Assembly (NCBI GenBank): GCA_019636445.1 | Contig: JAHBXO010000011.1 | Coordinates: forward strand, 39,997 to 103,996 | Source of the DNA: Gemmataceae bacterium | GTDB lineage: Bacteria > Planctomycetota > Planctomycetia > Gemmatales > Gemmataceae | Length of the DNA: 64,000 nucleotides | Direction: 5' to 3' | Shown here: positions 40,887-52,748 of the stretch, one piece after another | Layout of the letters: each line of letters starts with the position of its first letter | How positions within the stretch are numbered: the first letter of the stretch is position 1 | Notes under the pieces: generated by a model | What the model saw: the letters and a program-made list of their open reading frames with translations, nothing else | Told to the model about the DNA's origin: nothing | Database searches by the model: none | Program-made: the position numbers and the translations under genes

Positions 40887-41435
40887 TCAATGATTTTTCG
40901 TTGCCACGAACAACACGGGCGAAGTCGGCGATTCGCCGCCGGGGATCTCCTCGACGGCGAACTCCTTCATCGAATTCAATTTCTCCCGCACCGCGTCCGT
41001 CTCCTCCGTACCGCCGGGGTGCCCGCGATAGCCGATCACGGTGAGCACCCCACCGGGCACGAGGATGCTCGCGGCCGCCGCGATCGCGGGGATGGTAGAC
41101 TCACGCCGCGTCGTGACGGTCTTGTCCCCGCCCGGCAGGTAGCCGAGGTTGAAGCAGACGACTCGCACCGAGCCGGTCACGAACTCCGCAATCTTGCGGT
41201 GGTCGTCGAAATACAGTCTGGCATCCAGGAACCCCGCGTCGTCGAGTCGTTGCCGGGCGGCGAAGAGCGCATCGGGCTGCACGTCGAAGCCGATCACGCG
41301 GCCGGTCGGGCCGACGAGCCGGGCAAGTACGAGCGTGTCGTGCCCGTTGCCGACGGTGGCGTCCACGGCCGTGTCGCCGGGCCGGAGCACCGCCCGCCAG
41401 CGTTCGTGTGCAAGCTCCGTGAGGCGAATCATCAT
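40887..41435 (-). CDS. SAM-dependent methyltransferase, MnmM/YtqB (putative rRNA methylase) family
   Basis: AVDATVGNGHDT, VIGFDVQ, DDH, FNLGYLPGGDK, YRGHPGG. Confidence 0.85.
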   Translation of the reverse strand: MMIRLTELAHERWRAVLRPGDTAVDATVGNGHDTLVLARLVGPTGRVIGFDVQPDALFAARQRLDDAGFLDARLYFDDHRKIAEFVTGSVRVVCFNLGYLPGGDKTVTTRRESTIPAIAAAASILVPGGVLTVIGYRGHPGGTEETDAVREKLNSMKEFAVEEIPGGESPTSPVLFVATKNH

Positions 41436-41527
41436 CGTGTCCCGTCGGAAAACGGTTCCGCCGCCACCGCGCCACCCTTCCGCGGAAAGACTCCCGATTT
41501 CCGTTACCGTACTGGCCCGCAAACGAC

Positions 41528-42568
41528 TTACGTCGATTCCGACGGCGGGGCGAGACCCGCATCGGCGTCGATCGTCCCCGTGTTGGATAATCCGTTCGCC
41601 AGTTGTTCCGCGAAATACGGTGCCTGAAGCGAACCCTTCGATCCAAGGCCATTGAACAACGCTAGCGAATTCCATCGCGGATGCCGGCCGATGGTCGGTT
41701 TGCGATCGTCCAGGATCGGCCGGACGCCGGCGACGTGATCGACCACTTCGAACGGCACCTGCAGGAATTCCCGCAATCGCGTTTCGATCTCGGCGCGTCC
41801 GGCGGCGGTCGGCGTGGTGTCGAGACGGTTGCGGTCGTACGTCGAACCGGCCCGATAGATATCACCCGATTCGCGGACGATCCAGACGCCCCGGTTGACA
41901 ATACGATCTTCATTCAATCCGGGAATGCGCAGCATCAGCATCTCGCCCTTCGCCGGCGCGAACGGCAGCGGATCGAAGAGCGGATTCGCCCGCCCCGCCG
42001 CCCCCTGGCAGAAGACCGCGACGCGATACGCTTCGTTCCACTCCGGCACGCGCAGATGGTCCGAGCCGACTGCAAGCGTCGTCGGATCGATCCGAGCGAC
42101 CCGAACCCGCTCGCCGAAGAACGCGTGCGAGGCGCGCAGGTATTCGGCAACGTGGAGCTGCCGCGCGTCCGGCAACTCGAACCCGCCGAGCGGAGCCGCG
42201 AACCGCGATTTATCGAGATGGAGAGCGCCCGTTGTCACGCCGAAGGTCCCGGCCTTGCGTGTGAAGCGATCCCGTTCGAGTTCGTTCTGGAACAGACGCA
42301 CCATCGGCCGGCGTACGAAGAGCGAGCGATTCAATTCCACTTCCACTTTCGTGTAGAAACGCTCGGCCGCGGCGAGGAAGGTTGCGTAGTTCCACGAGAG
42401 CGCGAGCCGCTGGCCGGTGATCGGGTTCACGAAGCCCGCCGCGACGCGGGATGCCGAAGATGGATCGCCGGAATCGACCAGCACGAATGGCTGCCCGCGG
42501 AAATGCAGCGTCCACGCGAGTGTCGTGCCGGCGAGGCCGCCGCCGACGATCAGCACCGGGGCGCTCAC
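41528..42568 (-). CDS. FAD-dependent oxidoreductase, DAO/glycine oxidase/MnmC1-like
   Basis: IVGGGLAG, SASRVAAG, AKGEML, GSTY, AGVRP, FNGLGSKGSL; GTGA overlap with the upstream gene. Confidence 0.85.
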   Translation of the reverse strand: MSAPVLIVGGGLAGTTLAWTLHFRGQPFVLVDSGDPSSASRVAAGFVNPITGQRLALSWNYATFLAAAERFYTKVEVELNRSLFVRRPMVRLFQNELERDRFTRKAGTFGVTTGALHLDKSRFAAPLGGFELPDARQLHVAEYLRASHAFFGERVRVARIDPTTLAVGSDHLRVPEWNEAYRVAVFCQGAAGRANPLFDPLPFAPAKGEMLMLRIPGLNEDRIVNRGVWIVRESGDIYRAGSTYDRNRLDTTPTAAGRAEIETRLREFLQVPFEVVDHVAGVRPILDDRKPTIGRHPRWNSLALFNGLGSKGSLQAPYFAEQLANGLSNTGTIDADAGLAPPSEST

Positions 42569-45500
42569 CGGCCCACCGGCCGCGTATTCCAGGTCCGGTC
42601 GTATTCGTCCTGGCCGTTCGGCGCCTTCGACCGGTCCCGTGCGCCGTCGGGGTAGCTCGCCATCGCGCGGAACGGCAGCGGGTGGATATCGCCCGTCGTC
42701 GCCGTGAAAGGGGCCGAGTCCTTGCAGTAGCCATGTGAGCGCAGGACGAACGAGCGGACGGTTCCGTTCGGTGGCGGGGGAAGCGTCGCGTCGAATTCGA
42801 CTTCGACCTCGTCGCCGGGGCCGAGGATGGCGAAATGGTCGTCGGTCGTTGTCAGCAATTTGGTCACGTCGCCGAGCTTCGTGAGCTTGCCGCGCCACTT
42901 CGTGTAGGCGACGCGCTCGAGCGTGGCGTCGTCGTACGCGGCCGGGCCGGAGCCGCGGCGAATCTCCTTCGCGAAGCCCCGACGCGCGAGGGTCGCCTTC
43001 GCGACCACCATCTTCTGGAAATTCGGCTCGCCCGACTCCGCGACGCCGAGGCGGATCTGATCCCAGAAGACGTGCATGTTCGTCCGGATGCGGAGCTTCA
43101 ACCGCTTGGAGCCCGCCAGCCCCGTCACCGGCGAAGTCATCGTGCGCGGCAGGCCGGCGGGGAAGCCGATCTCGCCGACCGGTTGCCACGGGCCGTCGCC
43201 GACTTTCTTCTCCAGCGTCGGGGCCAGCGGCGTCACGCCCGCCTGCGTCGCGGCGAAGAGCGTCTCCGGATAGGCGTAGTCGGTCCAGCCGGAGAGCACG
43301 AGGAACAGGTTCGAATCCTTCGGAATGGTTTCGAGTTGATCGCCGAAATTGAGTTCGACCGTGTGCTCCTCCGCGAGTCCGAGCCAGAGCCGGCGGGCAA
43401 ACGTATCCACGAATTGTCCATCCCGTTCCTTCAATGTCGCCGTCACGTCGCGGCCGCGATGGTCTCTCGCACTCGCCGGAGAGTACCAGGAGCGGAACGC
43501 CAGCAGCTTCTGCGTCGGCGGCGATGCCCCGGCCGCGAACCGTTCGTCCGGATACACCTCCACGCCGGCCGGGTGATCGACCGCGTCCAGCCGCAGCGAA
43601 TCGAGATAGAGGATCTCGTTCATCGGCTCAGCAAGTTTGAGCCGATATTTCCCGTCCTTCGGCTTCAACTGGTCGGCCTCGATCTTCACGCTCTCCTCGG
43701 GTCGCGGGGGCCGCGTGCCGCCGGTGGCGTTCAGCTCGCCCATCGTCCCCTCGCCGAGCAGGTCGGTCACGTAGCGGTACTTCTCGCCGTCCCACGTGAA
43801 GAGCACCGGACACGAATCGGGCCGGCGGTCGGTCTCGCGCACGAGGCGCAGTTCGCACGTCGGCAGGTTCACCTCAGCCTGCGGGATCATGTCGGGCCAG
43901 GCGATCCGGAGCGCATCCGCGGAATTGTTCGGACCGACGCCGAAGTCGAGCGGCACGAGCGACTGCCCGAGGCCGGCGGAGCGCGTGGTGTTCTCGATGA
44001 GGGTCGAACGGGTACCGGCGAGCATGGTCGCCTTCGCGCCGAAGCCATCGCGGTTCGTGCGCGCGACCTGCGCCTGGCGCACGCCGGTGAGCTGGACTTT
44101 CAGCCCCTTGTTCCCGTTGCCGGCGTTGCGGAGGAACTTCAAGCCGTCCGGTGCCCAGCCGATCACGTCGTTGTCGCAGTCGCCGTCGAAGTCCCCGGCC
44201 GCGACGGCGATCAGGTCGGCGAGGTCGCCGAACGGATTGGCAGCCGTCTTCAAAGATCCCTCGCCGCGCACGAGGACCGGCTTGCGATCCGCCGACAGTC
44301 CGACGATGTCGGTGCGGCCGTCGTGGTCGAGGTCGATCGCCTGCGCTTGCAGGAGAATCGGCAGATCGGCGACGAGAGTCTTGAATCGCCCCTTCGTGTC
44401 GGTGCCGACGCGGTCGTCGGTCGTCACGAACGCGAGCGTCTTCTCCGGTGAGATCAGGACGAGATCGGATTGCCCGTCGGCGTTGACGTCGATCGTCGTT
44501 CCGCCTGTCCAGAACGCGCGTTCATCGACTATCTCCGAACCGCGACGGAACCGGAGCAGGCGATCGTTCAAAATCACGACGGGTGGCTTGCCGTCTTCGA
44601 GCGCGATGATGTCCACATCGCCGTCGGCATCGACATCGGTTAGGAGGAATCCATCGACCCGACCAGCCACGGTGAAGGCCGGATGCTCGAACGGCTGGAA
44701 CTTGGCGGAAAGGGGCTTCGCCTCACCCGGCGGGCCGGGCGGGGCTTCGCCGACGTTGAGGAAAACGAGAACGCCGCCCTGTTGCTTGACGAGCAACAAA
44801 TCCAGGTCGCCGTCCTGATCGATGTCGATCCACGCGGCCGACAGGAACGAACCGGCGGCCTTGTCCAACCCGGCGTCCTTCGTCACGTCCGCGAACTTCC
44901 CGTCGACGTTACGAAGCAACCTCACGCCGGTCGGGGACGTCAGCGCGAGGTCGGGTGTGCCGGAGTTGTCGAAGTCGGCGACGGCGCAGCCGTGGCTCGC
45001 ATGCCCGGCAAGTCCGGCATCGGTCGATACGTCCGTGAACGATCCGCCGTCGTTGCGGAGCAGAAGGTCGCCACGCTTTCCGTCGCGAATCACGGCGAAG
45101 AGCAGCAGCAGGTCGAGCTTGCCGTCGCCGTTGTAATCGAGGCGGACCATCGTGCCGCCGAACCGCTCGCGCACGGCCTTCGCGTCGCCATCCACGGTCG
45201 CGGCCCATTTCGTGTTCGTGGCGAGTTTGACGGCGAGTTCGGCCGGTTCGAACTTCGGCAGCGGGGAAAGGCCCGGCGGCGGGAGTATCGCGCCGATCGG
45301 CGCGCCGTAGCGGCCGAGCTTCGTCGGCTTCACTTCCGCGTTCCTCGCCCAGAGGCCGGCCTTCAGCGCGTCGTTCTCGGCATGCAGCTTCTTCCGCGTC
45401 TCCGGGTCGTCTGTGAGGCTGTGGTTCGCAATGCTGAAGCGTGCCGACGTAAGGTACGGGTCGAGCGCCACGGCCTTCTCGAAGAACTCCTTCGCCTGCG

Positions 45501-46026
45501 GGGAGTCGGCCGAGTCCGATGTGGTCATCGCGCGGAAGTACCAGGCGTAGGCATCTTGCGGGTCGACCTCCGTCACCTTCGCGAAGTGCGGGTTCGCGAG
45601 GTCCGGCTCGGCGCGGTAGTGATGAATGATGCCGAGGCCGAACTGCGCGTGGGCGTTCCCCGGCTCGGCGGTTGCAATCTCGCTGAAGAGCGCTTTCGCC
45701 TTGTCGATCTTCGGGTCCTCGGCCGTGTAGAGCAGGGCGAGCGCGAGGTGGATCTTCGCGGTTGTCCAGTTCGGCGCGAGTCGCAGGGCTTCGGTGAATT
45801 CCTTCCGGGCCTTCTCGTAGCCGGTCTCGCCGTCGTCCTGTTTCGTGTCGAACTGTTCGAGATACCCGACACCACGCGCGTTCGCGGCGGCGGCGGCTTC
45901 CGGGACATTTCCGGCCGTGTCTTTCCGATTGTTGAGCAACCAGATGCCCGCACCGATCAGGGCCAGCGCCAGAAGAACTGAAATCGCGATCCCGGCTCGT
46001 GATTTTTTCGGAGCAGCGTCGGCCAT
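42565..46026 (-). CDS. Membrane-anchored TPR plus FG-GAP/VCBS plus ASPIC/UnbV protein with unknown C-terminal domain
   Basis: N-terminal TM, TPRs (ALRLAPNW, AQFGLG, AWYFRA), DYNGDG/DIDQDGD/DLDHDG repeats, TNRDGFGAK...LDFGVG, then CPVLFTWDGEKYRYVTDLLG. Confidence 0.8.
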   Translation of the reverse strand: MADAAPKKSRAGIAISVLLALALIGAGIWLLNNRKDTAGNVPEAAAAANARGVGYLEQFDTKQDDGETGYEKARKEFTEALRLAPNWTTAKIHLALALLYTAEDPKIDKAKALFSEIATAEPGNAHAQFGLGIIHHYRAEPDLANPHFAKVTEVDPQDAYAWYFRAMTTSDSADSPQAKEFFEKAVALDPYLTSARFSIANHSLTDDPETRKKLHAENDALKAGLWARNAEVKPTKLGRYGAPIGAILPPPGLSPLPKFEPAELAVKLATNTKWAATVDGDAKAVRERFGGTMVRLDYNGDGKLDLLLLFAVIRDGKRGDLLLRNDGGSFTDVSTDAGLAGHASHGCAVADFDNSGTPDLALTSPTGVRLLRNVDGKFADVTKDAGLDKAAGSFLSAAWIDIDQDGDLDLLLVKQQGGVLVFLNVGEAPPGPPGEAKPLSAKFQPFEHPAFTVAGRVDGFLLTDVDADGDVDIIALEDGKPPVVILNDRLLRFRRGSEIVDERAFWTGGTTIDVNADGQSDLVLISPEKTLAFVTTDDRVGTDTKGRFKTLVADLPILLQAQAIDLDHDGRTDIVGLSADRKPVLVRGEGSLKTAANPFGDLADLIAVAAGDFDGDCDNDVIGWAPDGLKFLRNAGNGNKGLKVQLTGVRQAQVARTNRDGFGAKATMLAGTRSTLIENTTRSAGLGQSLVPLDFGVGPNNSADALRIAWPDMIPQAEVNLPTCELRLVRETDRRPDSCPVLFTWDGEKYRYVTDLLGEGTMGELNATGGTRPPRPEESVKIEADQLKPKDGKYRLKLAEPMNEILYLDSLRLDAVDHPAGVEVYPDERFAAGASPPTQKLLAFRSWYSPASARDHRGRDVTATLKERDGQFVDTFARRLWLGLAEEHTVELNFGDQLETIPKDSNLFLVLSGWTDYAYPETLFAATQAGVTPLAPTLEKKVGDGPWQPVGEIGFPAGLPRTMTSPVTGLAGSKRLKLRIRTNMHVFWDQIRLGVAESGEPNFQKMVVAKATLARRGFAKEIRRGSGPAAYDDATLERVAYTKWRGKLTKLGDVTKLLTTTDDHFAILGPGDEVEVEFDATLPPPPNGTVRSFVLRSHGYCKDSAPFTATTGDIHPLPFRAMASYPDGARDRSKAPNGQDEYDRTWNTRPVGR

Positions 46027-46029
46027 CGA

Positions 46030-47913
46030 TTACTTCGAAGCCGGCGTCGCGGCCGGTTCGCCTTGCTTGAGGAGATAGGTCTTGCCCGCCGCCAGGTCGG
46101 TCCAGTCCTGCGTGCCGCCGTCCTTGCCGGGCCAGCGCACCGTCAGCTTGTCGATCTTCGCAGAGGTTCCCAATCCAACCGTGACGGTCGATTCGCTCTG
46201 GCTCAGGTAGCCGCGGGCACCGGCCACCTCGCGCTTCAGCGTCTTCCCGTCCACCACGATCGTCAGCTCGGCGCCGATCGCGGAGCGGTTCGCCTTCACG
46301 CCTTCCAACTGAAGGCGGACGAAGTTCTGACCGAGTTTCTGATCGTTCCGCAACAGCCGCGCCTCGCCGCCGTTGCCGACGAGAACGATGTCGAGGTCGC
46401 CGTCGCCGTCGTAATCGAGGTAGGCGCAGCCACGGCCGACGAGCGGCTTCACGAGGTCCGGCCCGCATTTCTCGGGCGGCACGAGTTCGTACACGGTCTT
46501 TTCGTCGGCCGTGTTCCAGTAAAGCTGCGCCGCCTGCTCGTACGCCTGCCCGCCCTGGATCTTCGCGATCTCCGGTTCGATGTGCCCGTTCGCGACGAAG
46601 AGGTCCAGTCGGCCGTCGAGGTCGGCGTCGAAGGCGAAGGCGCCGAACTTCAGCGGCTTGCGGCTCGGCGCCACGAGGCCGACGGCGAGCGTGGTGTCGG
46701 TGAAGCGCACCTTGCCGTCGCGCGTCGTGCGGTTCAGGAACGTCGCCGGTTCGTCGGCGAAGTTGGCGACGAGGATGGCGGACTTGCCGGGGCGGTACTC
46801 GAACCAGTCGATGCCCATGCCGCCGCGGGCCTTGCCTTCGTCCGGGTAGGCGGCGCCGGCATCGACGCCGATTTCCTGGAACATGCGCGTGCCGTTCGGC
46901 CCGGGCTGGTTGTGGAAGAAGAAGTTCCGCACCGTGTCGTTGGCGACGACGATGTCGGGCCAGCCGTCGCCGTCGGCGTCGCAGGCGCAGACGCCGAGCG
47001 ATTTGCCGACGTTGCGGAGGCGGTCGCCGCGGCCGATGCCTTCCGCTTCGCGTACTTCGATGCCGGCCTTCGCACTGACGTCTTCGAACTTCGTGCCGTC
47101 GACGTTGCGGAAGAGCCAGCACTGGCTGCCGTTGTACTCCTTCGGCTGCGCGAACGAGCGGCCGACGCCGGTGGCCGTGCTGCTGATGGCGAGGTCCACG
47201 GCCGGGGACCACGAAACGTACGACGTGACGAAGAGGTCCAGTTTGCCGTCGCCGTCGTAGTCGAGGAACGTCGCGGACGCGCCGACGGGGATTGGTTTGT
47301 CGAGTTTGAGGAACTCGTCCCACGTGGCTTTCGGCCAGTCGCCGGAACCGCCGACGCCGGCGGTGTCGGTGATGTCCTTGAACGCCTTGCCGGCTTCGTT
47401 GTGGAAGAGGTGGTGCCGGCCGACGCAGCTCACGAAGAGGTCCGGGTAGCCGTCGTTGTCGATGTCGCCGACGGCCGCGCCCATGCCGTACATCGGCTTC
47501 GTGAAGCCGTGCTTCGCGGAGACATCCTCGAAGGTGCCGTCGCCCTTGTTGCGATAGAGCTTCGGCAGCGCGTTCGGGTTGTCGGCCTCGCGGCCGGGCC
47601 ACGGGCAGGAGTTCACGAAGAAGAGATCGGGCTTGCCGTCGCGATCGAAGTCGAGCACCGCGACGCCGCCGCCCATCGTTTCGGGGATGAGCTTCCTGCC
47701 GGCCATCCCGTTCTCGTGCCGGAACGCGATGCCTGCCGCCTTCGTCACGTCCGTGAAGCGGAGTTCGGGCACGTCGATCTTCGCCCGCGCCTTCGTCTCG
47801 TTCAGCTCAGGATCCTTGTGGGCTGGCAGGGGTTTCCCGAAATAGACATAGGCGAAAAAACCGCCGACTCCGAGCAGGAGCACGATGGCAATGATCGGCA
47901 AGGCACGTTGCAT
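46030..47913 (-). CDS. CRTAC1 family protein (FG-GAP repeats plus ASPIC/UnbV)
   Basis: FTDVT..AGI.F.H, ETMGGGVAVLDFDRDG, GMGAAVGD, NRSAIGA, GYLSQS...VGLG. Confidence 0.9.
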   Translation of the reverse strand: MQRALPIIAIVLLLGVGGFFAYVYFGKPLPAHKDPELNETKARAKIDVPELRFTDVTKAAGIAFRHENGMAGRKLIPETMGGGVAVLDFDRDGKPDLFFVNSCPWPGREADNPNALPKLYRNKGDGTFEDVSAKHGFTKPMYGMGAAVGDIDNDGYPDLFVSCVGRHHLFHNEAGKAFKDITDTAGVGGSGDWPKATWDEFLKLDKPIPVGASATFLDYDGDGKLDLFVTSYVSWSPAVDLAISSTATGVGRSFAQPKEYNGSQCWLFRNVDGTKFEDVSAKAGIEVREAEGIGRGDRLRNVGKSLGVCACDADGDGWPDIVVANDTVRNFFFHNQPGPNGTRMFQEIGVDAGAAYPDEGKARGGMGIDWFEYRPGKSAILVANFADEPATFLNRTTRDGKVRFTDTTLAVGLVAPSRKPLKFGAFAFDADLDGRLDLFVANGHIEPEIAKIQGGQAYEQAAQLYWNTADEKTVYELVPPEKCGPDLVKPLVGRGCAYLDYDGDGDLDIVLVGNGGEARLLRNDQKLGQNFVRLQLEGVKANRSAIGAELTIVVDGKTLKREVAGARGYLSQSESTVTVGLGTSAKIDKLTVRWPGKDGGTQDWTDLAAGKTYLLKQGEPAATPASK

Positions 47914-47957
47914 GGGGAGGGTCCGTTCTGTTCGAAGTAGACGGGGTCGATGGCGTT

Positions 47958-50900
47958 TTAGCGCCCGCCGCTCGTCGTGCCGTCGGTCAGTTCGCCGGTC
48001 TTGAGGATGCGCTGTTTCTGGTCGGTCGTCGTCGGGTAGATCACGCGATCGCGGGCGGCGTAGTTGGCGGCGGGGTTCTTCTGGCCGTAGATCTGCCGGG
48101 CGGTCGAGCGAGCGATCTCGTCCGGTTTGTAGATCAGGTGGAACTCGCGGTGCATCGCGGCGAGCACGGCCGCGACCGCCTCGCGAATCTCCGGATCCTT
48201 ATCGTCGAACGCCGGTCGCACGGTCTTGTACAGCGCCCGCATCGCCGGGATCTTCGGCGACTCCAGACTCGGCGGAAGCTTGCTCGCACCCGACAGCGCC
48301 AGCAGCAGCGCCCGCGCCGACGCGAACCGGCGCTCCTTCGGCGCTCCCGTCTCCGCCAGTTCCGCCGCCGCATAACTCGAATCGTGGATCGTCGGCGGTT
48401 TGTCCGTCTTCATGTCCGGCAGGTTCTTCTCGCTCGCCAGCGCGTCGAACGCTTGCCGGAGCTGGTCGTGCGCCTGCACATCCTCCTTGTCGAAGACCAG
48501 CACGCGCTCGGCCGAGCGGATGGATGCGGTAACGAACTGCCGCCATGCGTCGCTGCCTTCAGTCTCGAACTGCCGGCGTTTGAACTGCCGGTTCGCCAGC
48601 AGGTTCCAGATGACGTAATCCTTCTCGAAGTTGAACGACCGATCCTTTGGCGCGTTCTTCGGGTCGAGAATGCGCTCGAGGTCTTCGATGGCGCGGTCGA
48701 GGTCTTCGGGCTTCGTGGCGTTCTCACTATTGACGACGGCGCTCAGCCACGCGACGGTCCACCAGGGCGGGGCGGGCTGGGCCTTCTTGGCCAGTTCCAG
48801 TTCCTTCGCGGCTTCGTCCAGCCGTCCCTCGTCGATGTAGACGCGGGCCAGGTTCACGTGCCCCTGCCCAACGGCATCCGGCACGTCCAGCGTCGTCATC
48901 TTGCGGAACGCCGCTTCGGCCTGACGGAAGTGCCCGCGCTTGTTGCCGGGTCCGCCTTCGATCAGGTGCGCGATGCCGTAGTCGTTCCAGCGCTGCCAGC
49001 CGGCCTTGATCGGCGACACCTGCTCCGGCACCTTCTCCGCCACGCCCTTCACCGGCAGCGTCACCTTGTCCTCGCAGAGGTCCACCACCATGAGCTTCGG
49101 CATCGGCCGGCCGATCGCCTTCGACACGAAGTCCATGTATTCCTGATCGAACTTCCGGTACCGGACGCGCACGTGGAGTTCCACCGGGCCCGTCACGTCC
49201 TTCGGCACGTCCAGCCGGTAGCGCACGATCGCCGCGGCACCGGGCGGGATCTGCTTGTCGTAGAACGGCGTGAAGATGTCCTGCGGGTTCCGCCGGTTGA
49301 TGCGATTCCCGTTGCGGTCCAGCATGTGGACGTTGACGTAGTGCGCCCAGCGGTCCACCTCGCCGGAGTCATCCGGCCCGGCCATGCCCCCATTGCGGGC
49401 AATCTCCTTGCCTCCGGCCGTCGCGCGGAAGTCCACCCAGATCTCGTTCGAGTCCACCGTCCCCTGGCTGAAGTGGTGGCCGATCAGGAGGGCGCGCACG
49501 ATCGTTTCGATCGTGTAGGTCTGCCCCGGTTCGAGCACGGGCAAGGCCGGCCTCACGACCAGCAGTTTCTCCGCCTCCGTCGTCAGGCCCGCCTTCACAC
49601 CAAAGATGTCCACGCGCAGTACCTTGTCCTTCCCGCCGGGATCACGCCCCTTCAGGAAATCGACATGCTCCTGGATGGTCTTGTCGAAGCCCTCGGAGAG
49701 GTGCTTGTAGCGCGGGTCGTCCTTGAGTATCTGCATGAGACCGGTGTTCGAGCCGGGGAAGCGGTGGTTGTGGTTCTTCGGCTTGCCGGAACCGTCGAAG
49801 TTCTTCGCTCCGAAGTTCACCGAGAGATCGACGATCTCTTCCAGATTCATGTGGCATTCGGCGCAGCTCTGGAACGCCTTGGGCGGGTAATAGAAGCTGC
49901 GCGAGCCGTGGCCGGAGGCGCCGGAGAGCAGGAACGAATCGTGGTGGTTCTGCCCGCGGAGGAAGTCCTTGTAGTGGTTCAGTTCGATCGGCAGCGAGAC
50001 CTTGTGGCAGGTCGAGCAGAACTCCGTCGTGCGATGGAAATCCTTGAGGAAGGTCTTCTTGTGCACGTCGGGCTTCGCCTTGATCATCTGATTGCTGAGG
50101 CTGCGGAGCGATGCGTTCTCGCTGAAGGCGAAGGGGTAGTGGGCCGGAGACTCGATGGTGTAGGCACCGTTACCGGTCGTGTCGTGGACGTGCGTGATGG
50201 AGTGGCAGGCGACGCAGGTGATGCCGGCGTGCGCCGTCGGGTGCTTCTCCATGTCGAACTTCGGATCGTCGAAGGCGCCGCTGAAAAACGGGACGGGGTC
50301 GTGGCAGCCGGCGCACCAGCGACTGGCCTGCACGGTGCCGTCGCGGCGTTCGGAGTACTCGCGCGTCTCCTTCACGCTGGCGAGGTACGCCGGGTTGTTG
50401 AACGAGCTGAACTTGTGCGCGGAGTGCAAGTGGTCGTCGTAGATTTCCTTGTGGCACTGCATGCAATAGGTGTCACTCATCAGCGATTCGGCCGGAATGA
50501 ACTTGCCATCGGCCGTGCGCGACGACGACGGATGGAAGTATTTTTCCCCTTCCTTGGGTCCTTCGGTGAACCAGGTGTGCGGGGCGAGGCTGTGCAGTGC
50601 GAGCATGCCGCCGACGAAGGCGACGACGCCGAGCGCCCAGAGCTTGGCGAAGCGCCAGCGGATGGCGGGGCCCTTGCGCCGGTGCGCGACGTAGACGAAG
50701 ACGGAGGCGACGGGGAGGACGACATGCAGCCAATAGACGGTGCTGCGGGAGATCGTGCCGGTCGGCAGTTGTGGGAGTCCGTCGATCTGGAAGAGCGCCA
50801 GACCCGTCACGCCGATCAGGAGACCGATGGCGAAGAGCCAAAGTCCCCGATTGATGGCGGCCTTGTTCGAGAGCTTGCTCCCTTTGCGATAATGCCAAAG

Positions 50901-51185
50901 CCCGAAGATGACGAAGGGGACCATGACAGCGATGCCGACGGCGCCGTGCGCGAGGAACATCCAGAGCGTGAACGTGGTGCTGTAGGTGATACCGCGGGCG
51001 CGGTTGATCCAGTCGAAGAGGCTGACGGCGCCGAGGTACGCGCCGCTCGCGCCGAGGATCGCCACGGACGAGAAGACGAGGAACAGCAACACCCACAGGG
51101 TGGAGTTGAGCGTCTCGGGGGGAACCCACTTCTTGCGGGGCGGCCGCGGGACCGGCTGAGCCGGAACGGGATCGGGAGAGTTCAT
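47958..51185 (-). CDS. Membrane-anchored pentaheme c-type cytochrome (c-554-like) with C-terminal TPR region
   Basis: Five CxxCH (CMQCH, CAGCH, CVACH, CSTCH, CAECH); about 5 N-terminal TM helices with His residues; C-terminal TPR/HEAT-like helices. Confidence 0.88.
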   Translation of the reverse strand: MNSPDPVPAQPVPRPPRKKWVPPETLNSTLWVLLFLVFSSVAILGASGAYLGAVSLFDWINRARGITYSTTFTLWMFLAHGAVGIAVMVPFVIFGLWHYRKGSKLSNKAAINRGLWLFAIGLLIGVTGLALFQIDGLPQLPTGTISRSTVYWLHVVLPVASVFVYVAHRRKGPAIRWRFAKLWALGVVAFVGGMLALHSLAPHTWFTEGPKEGEKYFHPSSSRTADGKFIPAESLMSDTYCMQCHKEIYDDHLHSAHKFSSFNNPAYLASVKETREYSERRDGTVQASRWCAGCHDPVPFFSGAFDDPKFDMEKHPTAHAGITCVACHSITHVHDTTGNGAYTIESPAHYPFAFSENASLRSLSNQMIKAKPDVHKKTFLKDFHRTTEFCSTCHKVSLPIELNHYKDFLRGQNHHDSFLLSGASGHGSRSFYYPPKAFQSCAECHMNLEEIVDLSVNFGAKNFDGSGKPKNHNHRFPGSNTGLMQILKDDPRYKHLSEGFDKTIQEHVDFLKGRDPGGKDKVLRVDIFGVKAGLTTEAEKLLVVRPALPVLEPGQTYTIETIVRALLIGHHFSQGTVDSNEIWVDFRATAGGKEIARNGGMAGPDDSGEVDRWAHYVNVHMLDRNGNRINRRNPQDIFTPFYDKQIPPGAAAIVRYRLDVPKDVTGPVELHVRVRYRKFDQEYMDFVSKAIGRPMPKLMVVDLCEDKVTLPVKGVAEKVPEQVSPIKAGWQRWNDYGIAHLIEGGPGNKRGHFRQAEAAFRKMTTLDVPDAVGQGHVNLARVYIDEGRLDEAAKELELAKKAQPAPPWWTVAWLSAVVNSENATKPEDLDRAIEDLERILDPKNAPKDRSFNFEKDYVIWNLLANRQFKRRQFETEGSDAWRQFVTASIRSAERVLVFDKEDVQAHDQLRQAFDALASEKNLPDMKTDKPPTIHDSSYAAAELAETGAPKERRFASARALLLALSGASKLPPSLESPKIPAMRALYKTVRPAFDDKDPEIREAVAAVLAAMHREFHLIYKPDEIARSTARQIYGQKNPAANYAARDRVIYPTTTDQKQRILKTGELTDGTTSGGR

Positions 51186-51321
51186 GGGATCGGATCCGTT
51201 CGGTATGTGAAAGGGAATCCAACCGACGGGATAACCAAACGCCGGAACGGACCGCCCAGCGGGCGTTCGCCAGCAATTATGATAGTTTGGCTTCCAAGTT
51301 CGGCCGGCGCGCACGGGGCCA

Positions 51322-51678
51322 TCAGCGGCCGCGCGGCGGATGGAACGGAACGGACGAGATGGAGATCGGGAGTTGGAACGAATCGGACAATGGGGGCTTC
51401 GACGGCGTATCGAATACGGTCGGTGATTGTGTGGTCGTCATGGCCCAATCGTTTGGCGATCTCGGCGTCGAAGTAGATGGCGCGGGAATCGGAGAATCGG
51501 ACGGCGACGCCGAACAATTCGGCCCCTGACACGGCTTCGCGGGAGTATCCGTCTCGGAATGGTTCAACGTGAGCATCGGCTCGCCACACCCGGCTCGCGC
51601 GTCCGACGACGACAACGCGAGCGCGATCAGCGCGATCGCGGGCATCAGACGAAACGGATTCGGGAGAGATCGAATCAT
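51322..51678 (-). CDS. Small secreted Cys-containing protein ending in FHPPR (candidate regulatory leader)
   Basis: Signal peptide ending DARA, GCG and CQGPNC, Pro/Ser-rich linker, C-terminal PFHPPRGR; directly upstream of the cytochrome operon. Confidence 0.65.
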   Translation of the reverse strand: MIRSLPNPFRLMPAIALIALALSSSDARAGCGEPMLTLNHSETDTPAKPCQGPNCSASPSDSPIPAPSTSTPRSPNDWAMTTTQSPTVFDTPSKPPLSDSFQLPISISSVPFHPPRGR

Positions 51679-51758
51679 GTGCGACGCAAGTGAATCGTTC
51701 GATCCTTCATGGTAGCCCGCAACGTAGTGGTAGCAATCTAATTTTTTCGAGGCCGCCG

Positions 51759-52748
51759 ATGTCGCTCCGTTACCTCGCCGCCGCGTGCCAGATCGATCGG
51801 CCCAATCCGAAACACCGGTCGGAGATCGCGGGGCGAACGTCGATCATGTTGACAATGGCCGAACGCGCCATCGTTGGCTATCGACCGTTCGGCGACGTTC
51901 GCCTGATCGCGTTTCCGGAGTTCGGCCACGCCGCCCCTGTTTACGAAACCGCCGGCGAACTCCTCGACAAACTCGCCGTGCCGATCCCGAACGAACACAC
52001 CGACCGATACGTCGAGTTCTGCAAACGCTATCGCTGCTACATCCAGACCGGTAGTTTCCTGGAATCCGATACGCGGTTCCCCGGCCACGTGTTCAATACC
52101 ACGTGCCTGATTTCGGCCGACGGCATCCTCTACAAGTACCGCAAGGTGAACCCATGGATTCCGTGGGAAGTCCACACCAGCCCGCACGACATCCCGGACT
52201 TCCCGGATCCACTCTTCCCGGTCGCGGACACCGAGATCGGCCGCATCGGCGCGGCCATCTGCTACGACTGGCTGTTCCCCGAGGCGATCCGCGAGTTGGC
52301 GCTGGGCGGGGCGGAAGTGCTCGTGCGCGTCTCGGCATACATGGACCCGTGGGGAGCGACACCGCCGATGGACTGGTGGACGGTGGTGAACCGCTGCCGG
52401 GCGATCGAAAACCTTGCCTACGTCGTGGCGTCCAATCAGGCGGCGAGCTTGGACAACTATCCGCCGTTCTCGTGGCCGGGCGGGAGCATGATCGTGGATT
52501 ACGACGGCCGGATTCTGGCGCAAGCCGACCCGGGGCCGGGCGAGAAGATCGTTGTCGCGGGGATCGACATCGCCGCGTTGCGAGCCGAACGCGAGCGCCG
52601 CGCCGGCCACCACATGCTCGGCCACCTGCGGACGGAGGCGTATCCACGGCAGCGACGGCCGGTCTACCCGCAAACCGGGCAGGTGCCGACGCTGGCGGAC
52701 AACGAAACGGCGATCGGCAAGGGCAAGACCGCGTTCGATGGCCGCTAG
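51759..52748 (+). CDS. Nitrilase/carbon-nitrogen hydrolase family protein
   Basis: Catalytic triad E (FPEF), K (YRKV), C (ICYD). Confidence 0.88.
   Translation: MSLRYLAAACQIDRPNPKHRSEIAGRTSIMLTMAERAIVGYRPFGDVRLIAFPEFGHAAPVYETAGELLDKLAVPIPNEHTDRYVEFCKRYRCYIQTGSFLESDTRFPGHVFNTTCLISADGILYKYRKVNPWIPWEVHTSPHDIPDFPDPLFPVADTEIGRIGAAICYDWLFPEAIRELALGGAEVLVRVSAYMDPWGATPPMDWWTVVNRCRAIENLAYVVASNQAASLDNYPPFSWPGGSMIVDYDGRILAQADPGPGEKIVVAGIDIAALRAERERRAGHHMLGHLRTEAYPRQRRPVYPQTGQVPTLADNETAIGKGKTAFDGR

Follow-up and report, generated by a model that had tools for sequence, protein, structure and literature searches.

What does a multiheme cytochrome of the bacterial envelope do beside a calcium-propeller protein of the CRTAC1 family? 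The question is raised by a 64,000-nt stretch of DNA (hereafter the window; all positions are window positions) from a Gemmataceae bacterium, a planctomycete seen in activated-sludge and wastewater metagenomes. The window holds an operon-like run of three co-directional, minus-strand open reading frames (ORFs): a cytochrome of 1075 residues (P0004; 47958-51185), a CRTAC1-like propeller protein of 627 residues (P0002; 46030-47913) and a giant protein of 1153 residues with tetratricopeptide repeats (TPR) and FG-GAP repeats (P0003; 42565-46026). An original prediction, made from the sequence of the window, had taken the three as one module of tightly packed genes for membrane-anchored proteins. 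The ORF coordinates bear out the packing, with intergenic gaps of 44 nt and 3 nt, and P0002 and P0003 each start with one hydrophobic helix. The trio itself did not hold: the conserved core is the cytochrome-CRTAC1 pair, and P0003 is a frequent accessory, found in roughly half the loci, either upstream or downstream of the cytochrome. We consider it about an even call that the pair constitutes a widespread two-gene envelope redox module, made of a diheme-b/pentaheme-c cytochrome and a CRTAC1 propeller, to which a hydrolase and a leader peptide are linked.

The genetic evidence for the pair comes from two samples. We assembled 65 loci from species-representative genomes of Gemmataceae, Pirellulaceae, other Planctomycetota and Verrucomicrobiota, and from metagenome-assembled genomes (MAGs) labeled Gammaproteobacteria; 50 of these have at least 2.2 kb of downstream flank and were used for the adjacency count. 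Of these 50, 39 have a P0002 ortholog that immediately follows the cytochrome in the same orientation. A CRTAC1-like gene also lies directly downstream in all of 20 extra loci (20/20), whose cytochromes are 24-32% identical to that of the window and include TPR-less forms of ~720 residues. The second sample is an even set of 301 Planctomycetota genomes, in which P0002 orthologs were called at an expectation value (E) ≤ 1e-85. The cytochrome is found in 82 genomes and the CRTAC1 ortholog in 71; the two overlap in 69, leaving two with only CRTAC1 and 13 with only the cytochrome (odds ratio 576, Fisher p = 8e-52). In 57 of 68 genomes the two genes are within 2.5 kb of each other, and several of the exceptions fall at contig ends. 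The original prediction had named a failure of its genes to co-occur in other genomes as the outcome that would count against it, and for the pair both samples gave the reverse.

Two points weigh against this co-inheritance. The Fisher tests used throughout are uncorrected for phylogeny, and the 13 genomes (13/82) with a cytochrome have no strong CRTAC1 match; several of the 13 hold the most distant cytochrome matches or are assemblies that are at most 90% complete. Where CRTAC1 is not adjacent to the cytochrome, six of the six genomes tested hold an ortholog-level copy elsewhere (47-59% identity, against 32-38% for paralogs).

CRTAC1-family and TPR genes are numerous in planctomycetes, and the genome of the window itself carries about four further CRTAC1-like paralogs, so that the adjacency could be a coincidence born of abundance. 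We regard the probability of this as negligible. A phylogenetic tree of 80 CRTAC1 copies, 58 of them directly downstream of a cytochrome, was used qualitatively only: the adjacent copies group in a single clade with good support, in which the branching into sub-clades mirrors that of the cytochromes, and truly unlinked paralogs form a separate clade. It is thus a single orthologous CRTAC1 clade that stands next to the cytochrome, with the odds ratio given above, and this adjacency spans Planctomycetota, Verrucomicrobiota and MAGs labeled Gammaproteobacteria, down to cytochromes at 24-32% identity.

Roughly one in four Planctomycetota species has the cytochrome, which is also found in Verrucomicrobiota and in some MAGs labeled Gammaproteobacteria; cultured carriers include Zavarzinella formosa DSM 19928, Tuwongella immobilis and Pirellula staleyi DSM 6068. 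It has more than 5700 homologs, and 538 clusters at 50% identity match it at E ≤ 1e-30. Public annotations call it 'tetratricopeptide repeat protein' or 'multiheme c-type cytochrome'. The genome of the window has a single copy. A GTG start codon exists upstream of the gene, but the sequence context and the homologs favor the ATG at 51185. NCBIfam names none of the three proteins.

How would such a cytochrome handle electrons? We modeled it with AlphaFold2 on 43 homologs, reaching a predicted local distance difference test score (pLDDT) of 86.7 and a predicted template modeling score of 0.84. In the model, the transmembrane (TM) domain (residues 28-198; 50592-51104, minus strand) consists of five helices (residues 28-60, 71-102, 108-131, 145-170 and 177-198), in agreement with the prediction of about five TM helices with two His pairs. 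The pairs are on TM2 (H80 and H98, AHG...WHY; codons 50946-50948 and 50892-50894, minus strand) and on TM4 (H154 and H168, LHV...AHR; codons 50724-50726 and 50682-50684, minus strand). H80 and H154 sit nine residues from the periplasmic ends of their helices, and H98 and H168 sit at the cytoplasmic ends. As read from the sequence, Lys and Arg are plentiful at the N-terminus and in the loops spanning residues 99-107 and 169-176, and the topology is therefore predicted to be N-in, C-out, with the c-heme domain in the periplasm.

All four His are deeply conserved, which is where the prediction had placed its second point of vulnerability. They are 97% conserved in 59 locus-derived cytochrome sequences and invariant both in a 43-sequence alignment and in a 28-sequence alignment of the TM domain only. 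Among 45 diverse homologs, down to 27% identity, H80 and H154 are kept by all 45, and H98 and H168 by 42 each. The protein thus has one bis-His pair per membrane face, supplied by two TM helices, as a diheme transmembrane cytochrome b does. Two His pairs on parallel helices of a four-helix core are the classical bis-His diheme signature: in the cytochrome b of the bc1 and b6f complexes, FdnI and NarI, a four-helix bundle likewise holds two pairs on parallel helices, one at each membrane face. Here the pairs are on the second and fourth helices, and the spacing of 14 residues on TM4 is the same as in FdnI and cytochrome b. The two pairs most likely ligate two b-type hemes. Since the co-occurrence of the pair and the conservation of the TM His both hold, a cytochrome b-like membrane part feeding a periplasmic pentaheme is a reasonable reading.

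Several observations count against heme b in this domain. The membrane domain has no Pfam match at E up to 10, neither in the window protein nor in the 45 homologs, and no NCBIfam match, and its profile finds only chance-level matches among PDB sequences. On TM2 the two His are 18 residues apart, an atypical spacing compared with the usual 13-14. The domain has no detectable homology to the cytochrome b of bc1/b6f, FdnI or NarI, from which it further differs in that its fifth helix runs into the c-heme domain. The membrane domain might therefore be only an anchor, or a module binding a metal or another ion, while the pentaheme domain trades electrons with soluble periplasmic carriers and not with the quinone pool. 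This alternative draws on the lack of any cytochrome b family match in Pfam, NCBIfam or the PDB, on the TM2 spacing and on a profile-profile comparison that gave nothing: in hhalign, the TM profile scored a probability below 1% against thin alignments of Ni_hydr_CYTB and cytochrome b. That negative is uninformative, because the control comparison between these two true cytochrome b families failed too. The four His, moreover, are kept over very deep divergence, at matching depths of two helices that run parallel within the four-helix core, and five conserved helices are more than a simple anchor needs. We judge the anchor explanation unlikely, and retain the diheme reading.

Other membrane cytochrome types were also considered. 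The protein falls outside the NapC/NirT/NrfH/CymA class, which has a single N-terminal TM helix and a tetraheme domain, as it has five TM helices and five heme motifs; the NapC/NirT Pfam family is matched neither by the cytochrome nor among the 25 commonest of the 56 families matched by the 45 homologs. A six-frame search for the membrane cytochrome families PF01292 and PF14358 (DUF4405) returned nothing in the genome of the window. In 10 genomes of the same genus the sole matches were two to PF01292 in one genome (G311), whose position relative to its cytochrome was not checked.

The membrane b/c cytochromes of Geobacter offer the closest parallel in overall plan. In CbcL of Geobacter sulfurreducens, a diheme b membrane domain is fused to a nine-heme periplasmic domain, and the protein is a quinone oxidoreductase (PMC9129911). 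As in CbcL, CbcBA and ImcH, a polytopic membrane domain with b-heme ligands, here putative, is joined to a periplasmic multiheme c domain in one polypeptide, forming what would be an electron gate between membrane and periplasm. CbcL combines six TM helices of the HydC/FdnI type (PF01292) with nine c hemes and feeds the soluble PpcA, whereas the cytochrome described here has five helices without a Pfam or PDB match and five c hemes, adds a beta-sandwich and TPR, and comes with CRTAC1 as an obligate partner. The module resembles membrane b/c cytochromes, but its obligate partner is unprecedented.

The periplasmic part begins with a pentaheme c domain (residues ~200-520; 49626-50480, minus strand; PF13435). 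Its five CxxCH motifs, CMQCH (50451-50465), CAGCH (50301-50315), CVACH (50202-50216), CSTCH (50004-50018) and CAECH (49851-49865), all on the minus strand, are exactly where the original prediction had put them, and they are 100% conserved among the aligned homologs. The same prediction had called the domain a c554-like multiheme, and in fact residues 241-329 match Cytochrome_C554 (PF13435) with 25.2 bits against a cut-off of 20.8, placing the protein in the family; 42 of the 45 diverse homologs match PF13435 as well (best E = 1.9e-10). Cytochrome c554 packs four hemes, one of them five-coordinate, as compared with the five CxxCH motifs of the window cytochrome. Outside the motifs, the only His that are invariant in the 45 homologs are H257, H375, H474 and H570. 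H414 is kept in 33 of the 45 and replaced by Glu, Gln, Asp or Thr in the other 12, and M446 is kept in 43. Because there are only four invariant non-motif His for five hemes, one of the five c hemes may have a variable or open sixth position.

At the sequence level the heme domain has only two relatives, PF13435 and the pentaheme cytochrome c552 of Thermochromatium tepidum (PDB 5ZE8), the latter being the only one of solved structure and marginal in its E value. The similarity to c552 (E = 0.0049 with a single sequence and 2.9e-4 with a profile, over ~107 residues) spans only about two heme motifs, although both proteins have five CxxCH. Unlike the window protein, c552 and c554 are soluble and have no membrane domain, beta-sandwich, TPR or propeller partner.

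Two further domains follow in the AlphaFold2 model. The first is a beta-sandwich (residues 523-710; 49056-49619, minus strand) that has no Pfam match, carries the invariant H570 and is kept in the TPR-less relatives of ~720 residues. The second is a C-terminal TPR/alpha-solenoid (residues 729-1063; 47997-49001, minus strand). The TPR that had been predicted for the cytochrome give weak Pfam matches in the window protein and strong ones in its homologs, in keeping with the solenoid of the model, and a Foldseek search of the PDB with the whole model returned TPR proteins only. This solenoid is missing from the most distant relatives that form the pair. The minimal cytochrome therefore consists of the TM domain, the pentaheme domain and the beta-sandwich, and the TPR lie outside the minimal core.

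The partner protein P0002 is a CRTAC1/ASPIC-UnbV protein by its Pfam matches (FG-GAP_3, 103.7 bits; UnbV_ASPIC, 64.6 bits) and by its similarity to murine CRTAC1 (9etn, E = 2.4e-13). All its orthologs carry a hydrophobic anchor, with a lipobox in its place in some lineages, and in 38 of 43 the anchor or lipobox precedes the propeller by 41-42 residues; the propeller is therefore held at a short, constant distance from the membrane. The vertebrate protein (CRTAC1/ASPIC, 9ETN) shares the FG-GAP calcium propeller and the UnbV_ASPIC domain with P0002 and with the middle part of P0003. The bacterial partners differ from it in being tethered to the membrane, in lacking the EGF tail and in being genetically locked to a cytochrome.

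P0003 comprises a TM anchor, TPR, a CRTAC1-like propeller and a C-terminal beta domain (AlphaFold2 pLDDT 79.4). Pfam finds TPR and FG-GAP_3 (94.4 bits) in it, and UnbV at 19.2 bits, below the cut-off of 23.4. Its top Foldseek match is murine CRTAC1 (9etn, E = 3e-16, TM-score 0.64). The C-terminal beta-rich domain of ~420 residues (residues 735-1153; 42568-43824, minus strand) is unassigned in Pfam and the PDB, and two motifs in it, SCP...W.G and G..KD, are invariant. Among its 923 homologs, the 120 listed all carry an FG-GAP domain before it, usually with TPR and UnbV, and the domain itself is uncovered by precomputed Pfam annotation in these listed homologs. Of 30 loci with sequence available on both flanks, 16 have a P0003-type gene within 10 kb of the cytochrome; Gemmataceae carry it downstream, and it is found upstream in Pirellulaceae and others, among them the gammaproteobacterial MAGs.

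The Foldseek list of P0003 includes the FG-GAP lectin PVL (4up4, E = 5.7e-6), which brings up a role in polymer or glycan processing: the propellers would bind polysaccharide, as FG-GAP lectins and PL11-type propellers do, and the cytochrome would move electrons for its oxidative processing. The lectin match is, however, a generic propeller match, and the conserved neighbors of the pair in 85 loci include no carbohydrate-active enzyme, TonB receptor or sugar transporter. We find a glycan role improbable.

A redox or catalytic role of the propellers is itself conjecture. They lack CxxCH, a conserved Cys pair and any known cofactor motif, and carry only DxDxDG motifs of the calcium type; this speaks against an active part in redox chemistry. 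Lacking a redox-cofactor motif, the propellers are less likely to accept electrons than to serve as scaffolds or as substrate-binding or catalytic partners. The same DxDxDG motifs suit another explanation, in which the cytochrome would report redox state, O2 or NO to an adhesive or structural calcium propeller, or would stabilize the propeller. There is precedent for a cytochrome c acting on a calcium-binding propeller: the cytochrome TfcP is reported to support the calcium-binding propeller protein PilY1 (PMC8833165). The TPR domains, as platforms for protein-protein contacts, would fit this as well. On the other hand, five c hemes and a probable b pair make a wire far longer than a sensor needs, pilus or adhesin genes are not consistently linked, and the tight link to a cytoplasmic amidase-like enzyme, described below, suits metabolism better than adhesion. 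We rate a sensing or stabilizing unit as rather improbable, a little below the anchor explanation and above the glycan role.

We instead favor the redox module, which would work as follows. Electrons would cross the membrane through the two b hemes of the TM domain and be exchanged with a quinone site or a cytoplasmic donor. One His pair lies at the cytoplasmic face, so electron transfer would be transmembrane, and the arrangement favors a quinone site or donor on the cytoplasmic side; the reaction could be electrogenic, by analogy with formate dehydrogenase-N. Electrons would pass along the periplasmic five-heme c wire, which is fused to the beta-sandwich and, in most lineages, to a TPR platform. 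The CRTAC1 calcium propeller, tethered to the same membrane ~40 residues off, would most likely be the substrate-binding or catalytic partner served by the heme wire, possibly in a physical complex with the cytochrome, and P0003 would be an accessory scaffold or a second propeller subunit. A formamidase-like CN-hydrolase would be functionally linked to the module, and a CutF-like leader with Cys and Pro-Pro-Arg motifs would set its expression. Of the original prediction, then, the conserved envelope redox module with a cytochrome b-like His pattern stands, and its composition changes from a trio to a pair.

A more specific form of this proposal makes the pair a respiratory-type oxidoreductase with CRTAC1 as its substrate-binding or catalytic subunit, linked to quinone and possibly electrogenic, with the amidase tying it to the metabolism of small nitrogen compounds. 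We offer this version as tentative, and give it no better chances than the anchor explanation.

The hydrolase and the leader had been left out of the original list of parts. Divergent from the operon, a gene for a cytoplasmic CN-hydrolase of the nitrilase superfamily (51690-52748, plus strand; PF00795, 126 bits) probably starts at an ATG near 51759. It most resembles formamidases and aliphatic amidases. Its nearest PDB entry is formamidase 5g3o (E = 1.4e-23), and it scores below every NCBIfam equivalog cut-off, including those of formamidase and aliphatic amidase (NF009803, 103.9 against 406 bits; NF009802, 74.1 against 427 bits). Orthologs at 63-92% identity flank the cytochrome in 19 loci: Gemmataceae, some without an adjacent CRTAC1, the L001 contig described below and two gammaproteobacterial MAGs in which the hydrolase opens the operon. 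In the 301 Planctomycetota genomes, orthologs at 58-70% identity, across classes of the phylum, are found in 39, of which 35 also have the cytochrome (p = 1e-18), and in cytochrome-bearing genomes the hydrolase is often on a contig other than that of the cytochrome. The hydrolase is better conserved than the cytochrome. The link is one-way: the hydrolase is almost confined to genomes with the cytochrome, but it is missing from many lineages that have the cytochrome, which counts against it as a general component and places it outside the universal core. As a hint, the amidase link points to a small nitrogen compound.

Upstream of the cytochrome, a small exported ORF of 118 residues (51322-51678, minus strand) encodes a signal peptide, the Cys motifs GCGEP and PCQGPNC, and a C-terminal FHPPRGR; it has no Pfam match. 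Similar ORFs precede the cytochrome by 97-260 nt in 10 other loci from several families. In 8 of 8 ORFs with a PCx(2-4)C motif, that of the window included, 62-64 residues separate the second Cys motif from the PP, and the intervening sequence is unconserved; in three ORFs with the single-Cys variant [SP]C[HT]D the distance is 54-55 residues. CutF and CruR are exported copper-sensing leader peptides (PMC9973294); in leaders of the CutF type, the Pro-rich end is a stalling-like motif and a stem-loop shields the start of the downstream gene. The ORF shares with them a Sec-type signal peptide, Cys motifs, a Pro-rich, positively charged C-terminal end and a fixed distance from Cys to this end. It differs in having no sequence homology to them, in its motifs ([GS]CG[DE]Y and PCxGPxC instead of CxxxC), in the distance (~63 residues against 45), in what lies downstream (the cytochrome and the propeller, with no known metal-homeostasis gene) and in a spacer whose fold is unexceptional. 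That spacer, the 136 nt between the ORF and the cytochrome (51186-51321, minus strand), contains a terminator-like hairpin (51240-51261). Its fold is no more stable than that of shuffled sequence (z = 0.03), so a structural switch is unsupported by energy alone. By this analogy, the ORF is a candidate CutF-like regulatory leader that probably controls expression, and its Cys and Pro-Pro-Arg motifs hint at control by metal or redox state.

At the level of transcription, scans for terminators and promoters found no more sites than in shuffled sequence. Metatranscriptome contigs from sludge and bioreactors cover all three genes at low depth. None of these contigs runs from one gene into the next, and DNA may be present in some of the 'RNA' libraries; a shared transcript is therefore putative.

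Beyond the 3' end of P0003, the GTG start of a DAO-family flavin adenine dinucleotide oxidoreductase (40887-42568, minus strand) overlaps the stop codon of P0003 (GTGA), and a YtqB/rRNA_methylase-type methyltransferase comes next. We rejected these two genes as parts of the module; they follow P0003 only in the two closest relatives (L001 and L002). L001 (CAYVRB010000017.1) is a contig whose cytochrome is 94% identical to that of the window and which was deposited as 'uncultured Alcaligenaceae bacterium'. This bin label is probably wrong and the content planctomycete (Gemmataceae).

Other loci show variations around the pair. In Pirellulaceae (L039, L043, L046, L050, L052, L053, L061 and L062; for instance L061:9108-9986), the P0003-type gene and the cytochrome are separated by the gene of a secreted six-bladed NHL/SGL propeller. 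One clade that lacks an adjacent CRTAC1 (L042:5936-6967; also L045, L048 and L065) has a propeller of the SMP-30/gluconolactonase type (SGL) convergent to the cytochrome. Other calcium propellers may thus also associate with the cytochrome. Five Verrucomicrobiota loci (L028, L031, L034, L041 and L060; for instance L041:6477-7565 and L034:2970-3731) have a LytS-type kinase and a LytTR regulator upstream of the pair, as well as a second, divergent CRTAC1 copy. Finally, in the L017 genome an unlinked CRTAC1 ortholog is split over two overlapping frames (G323:C1:182376-184176), through a frameshift or an assembly error.

Literature searches on CRTAC1/UnbV with multihemes or cytochromes, and on TPR with multihemes in Planctomycetota, found no description of the module in the library searched. 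A related arrangement is known from hydrazine synthase (HZS)-like clusters of non-anammox bacteria, where a CRTAC1-family gene stands between the genes of alpha-like and beta-gamma-like heme subunits (PMC12758564). These clusters also place a CRTAC1-family FG-GAP gene among c-type heme proteins, some with c554 domains, but they encode soluble HZS homologs without a b/c membrane fusion and occur in other lineages.

CRTAC1-family proteins are abundant in bacteria of soil, freshwater and wastewater, and the family includes a human biomarker protein. To our knowledge, the biochemical function is known for no member. The module described here provides a precise, testable context for the family, namely a dedicated membrane cytochrome that is almost always inherited together with the CRTAC1 ortholog; the ortholog in turn is seldom found alone (2/71). 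If the pair is an oxidoreductase, it would give the CRTAC1 family its first biochemical function and offer a lead for the vertebrate protein. If the enzyme is coupled to quinone, it would represent an unrecognized branch of the respiratory or detoxifying electron-transfer chains in environmentally dominant, little-studied bacteria.

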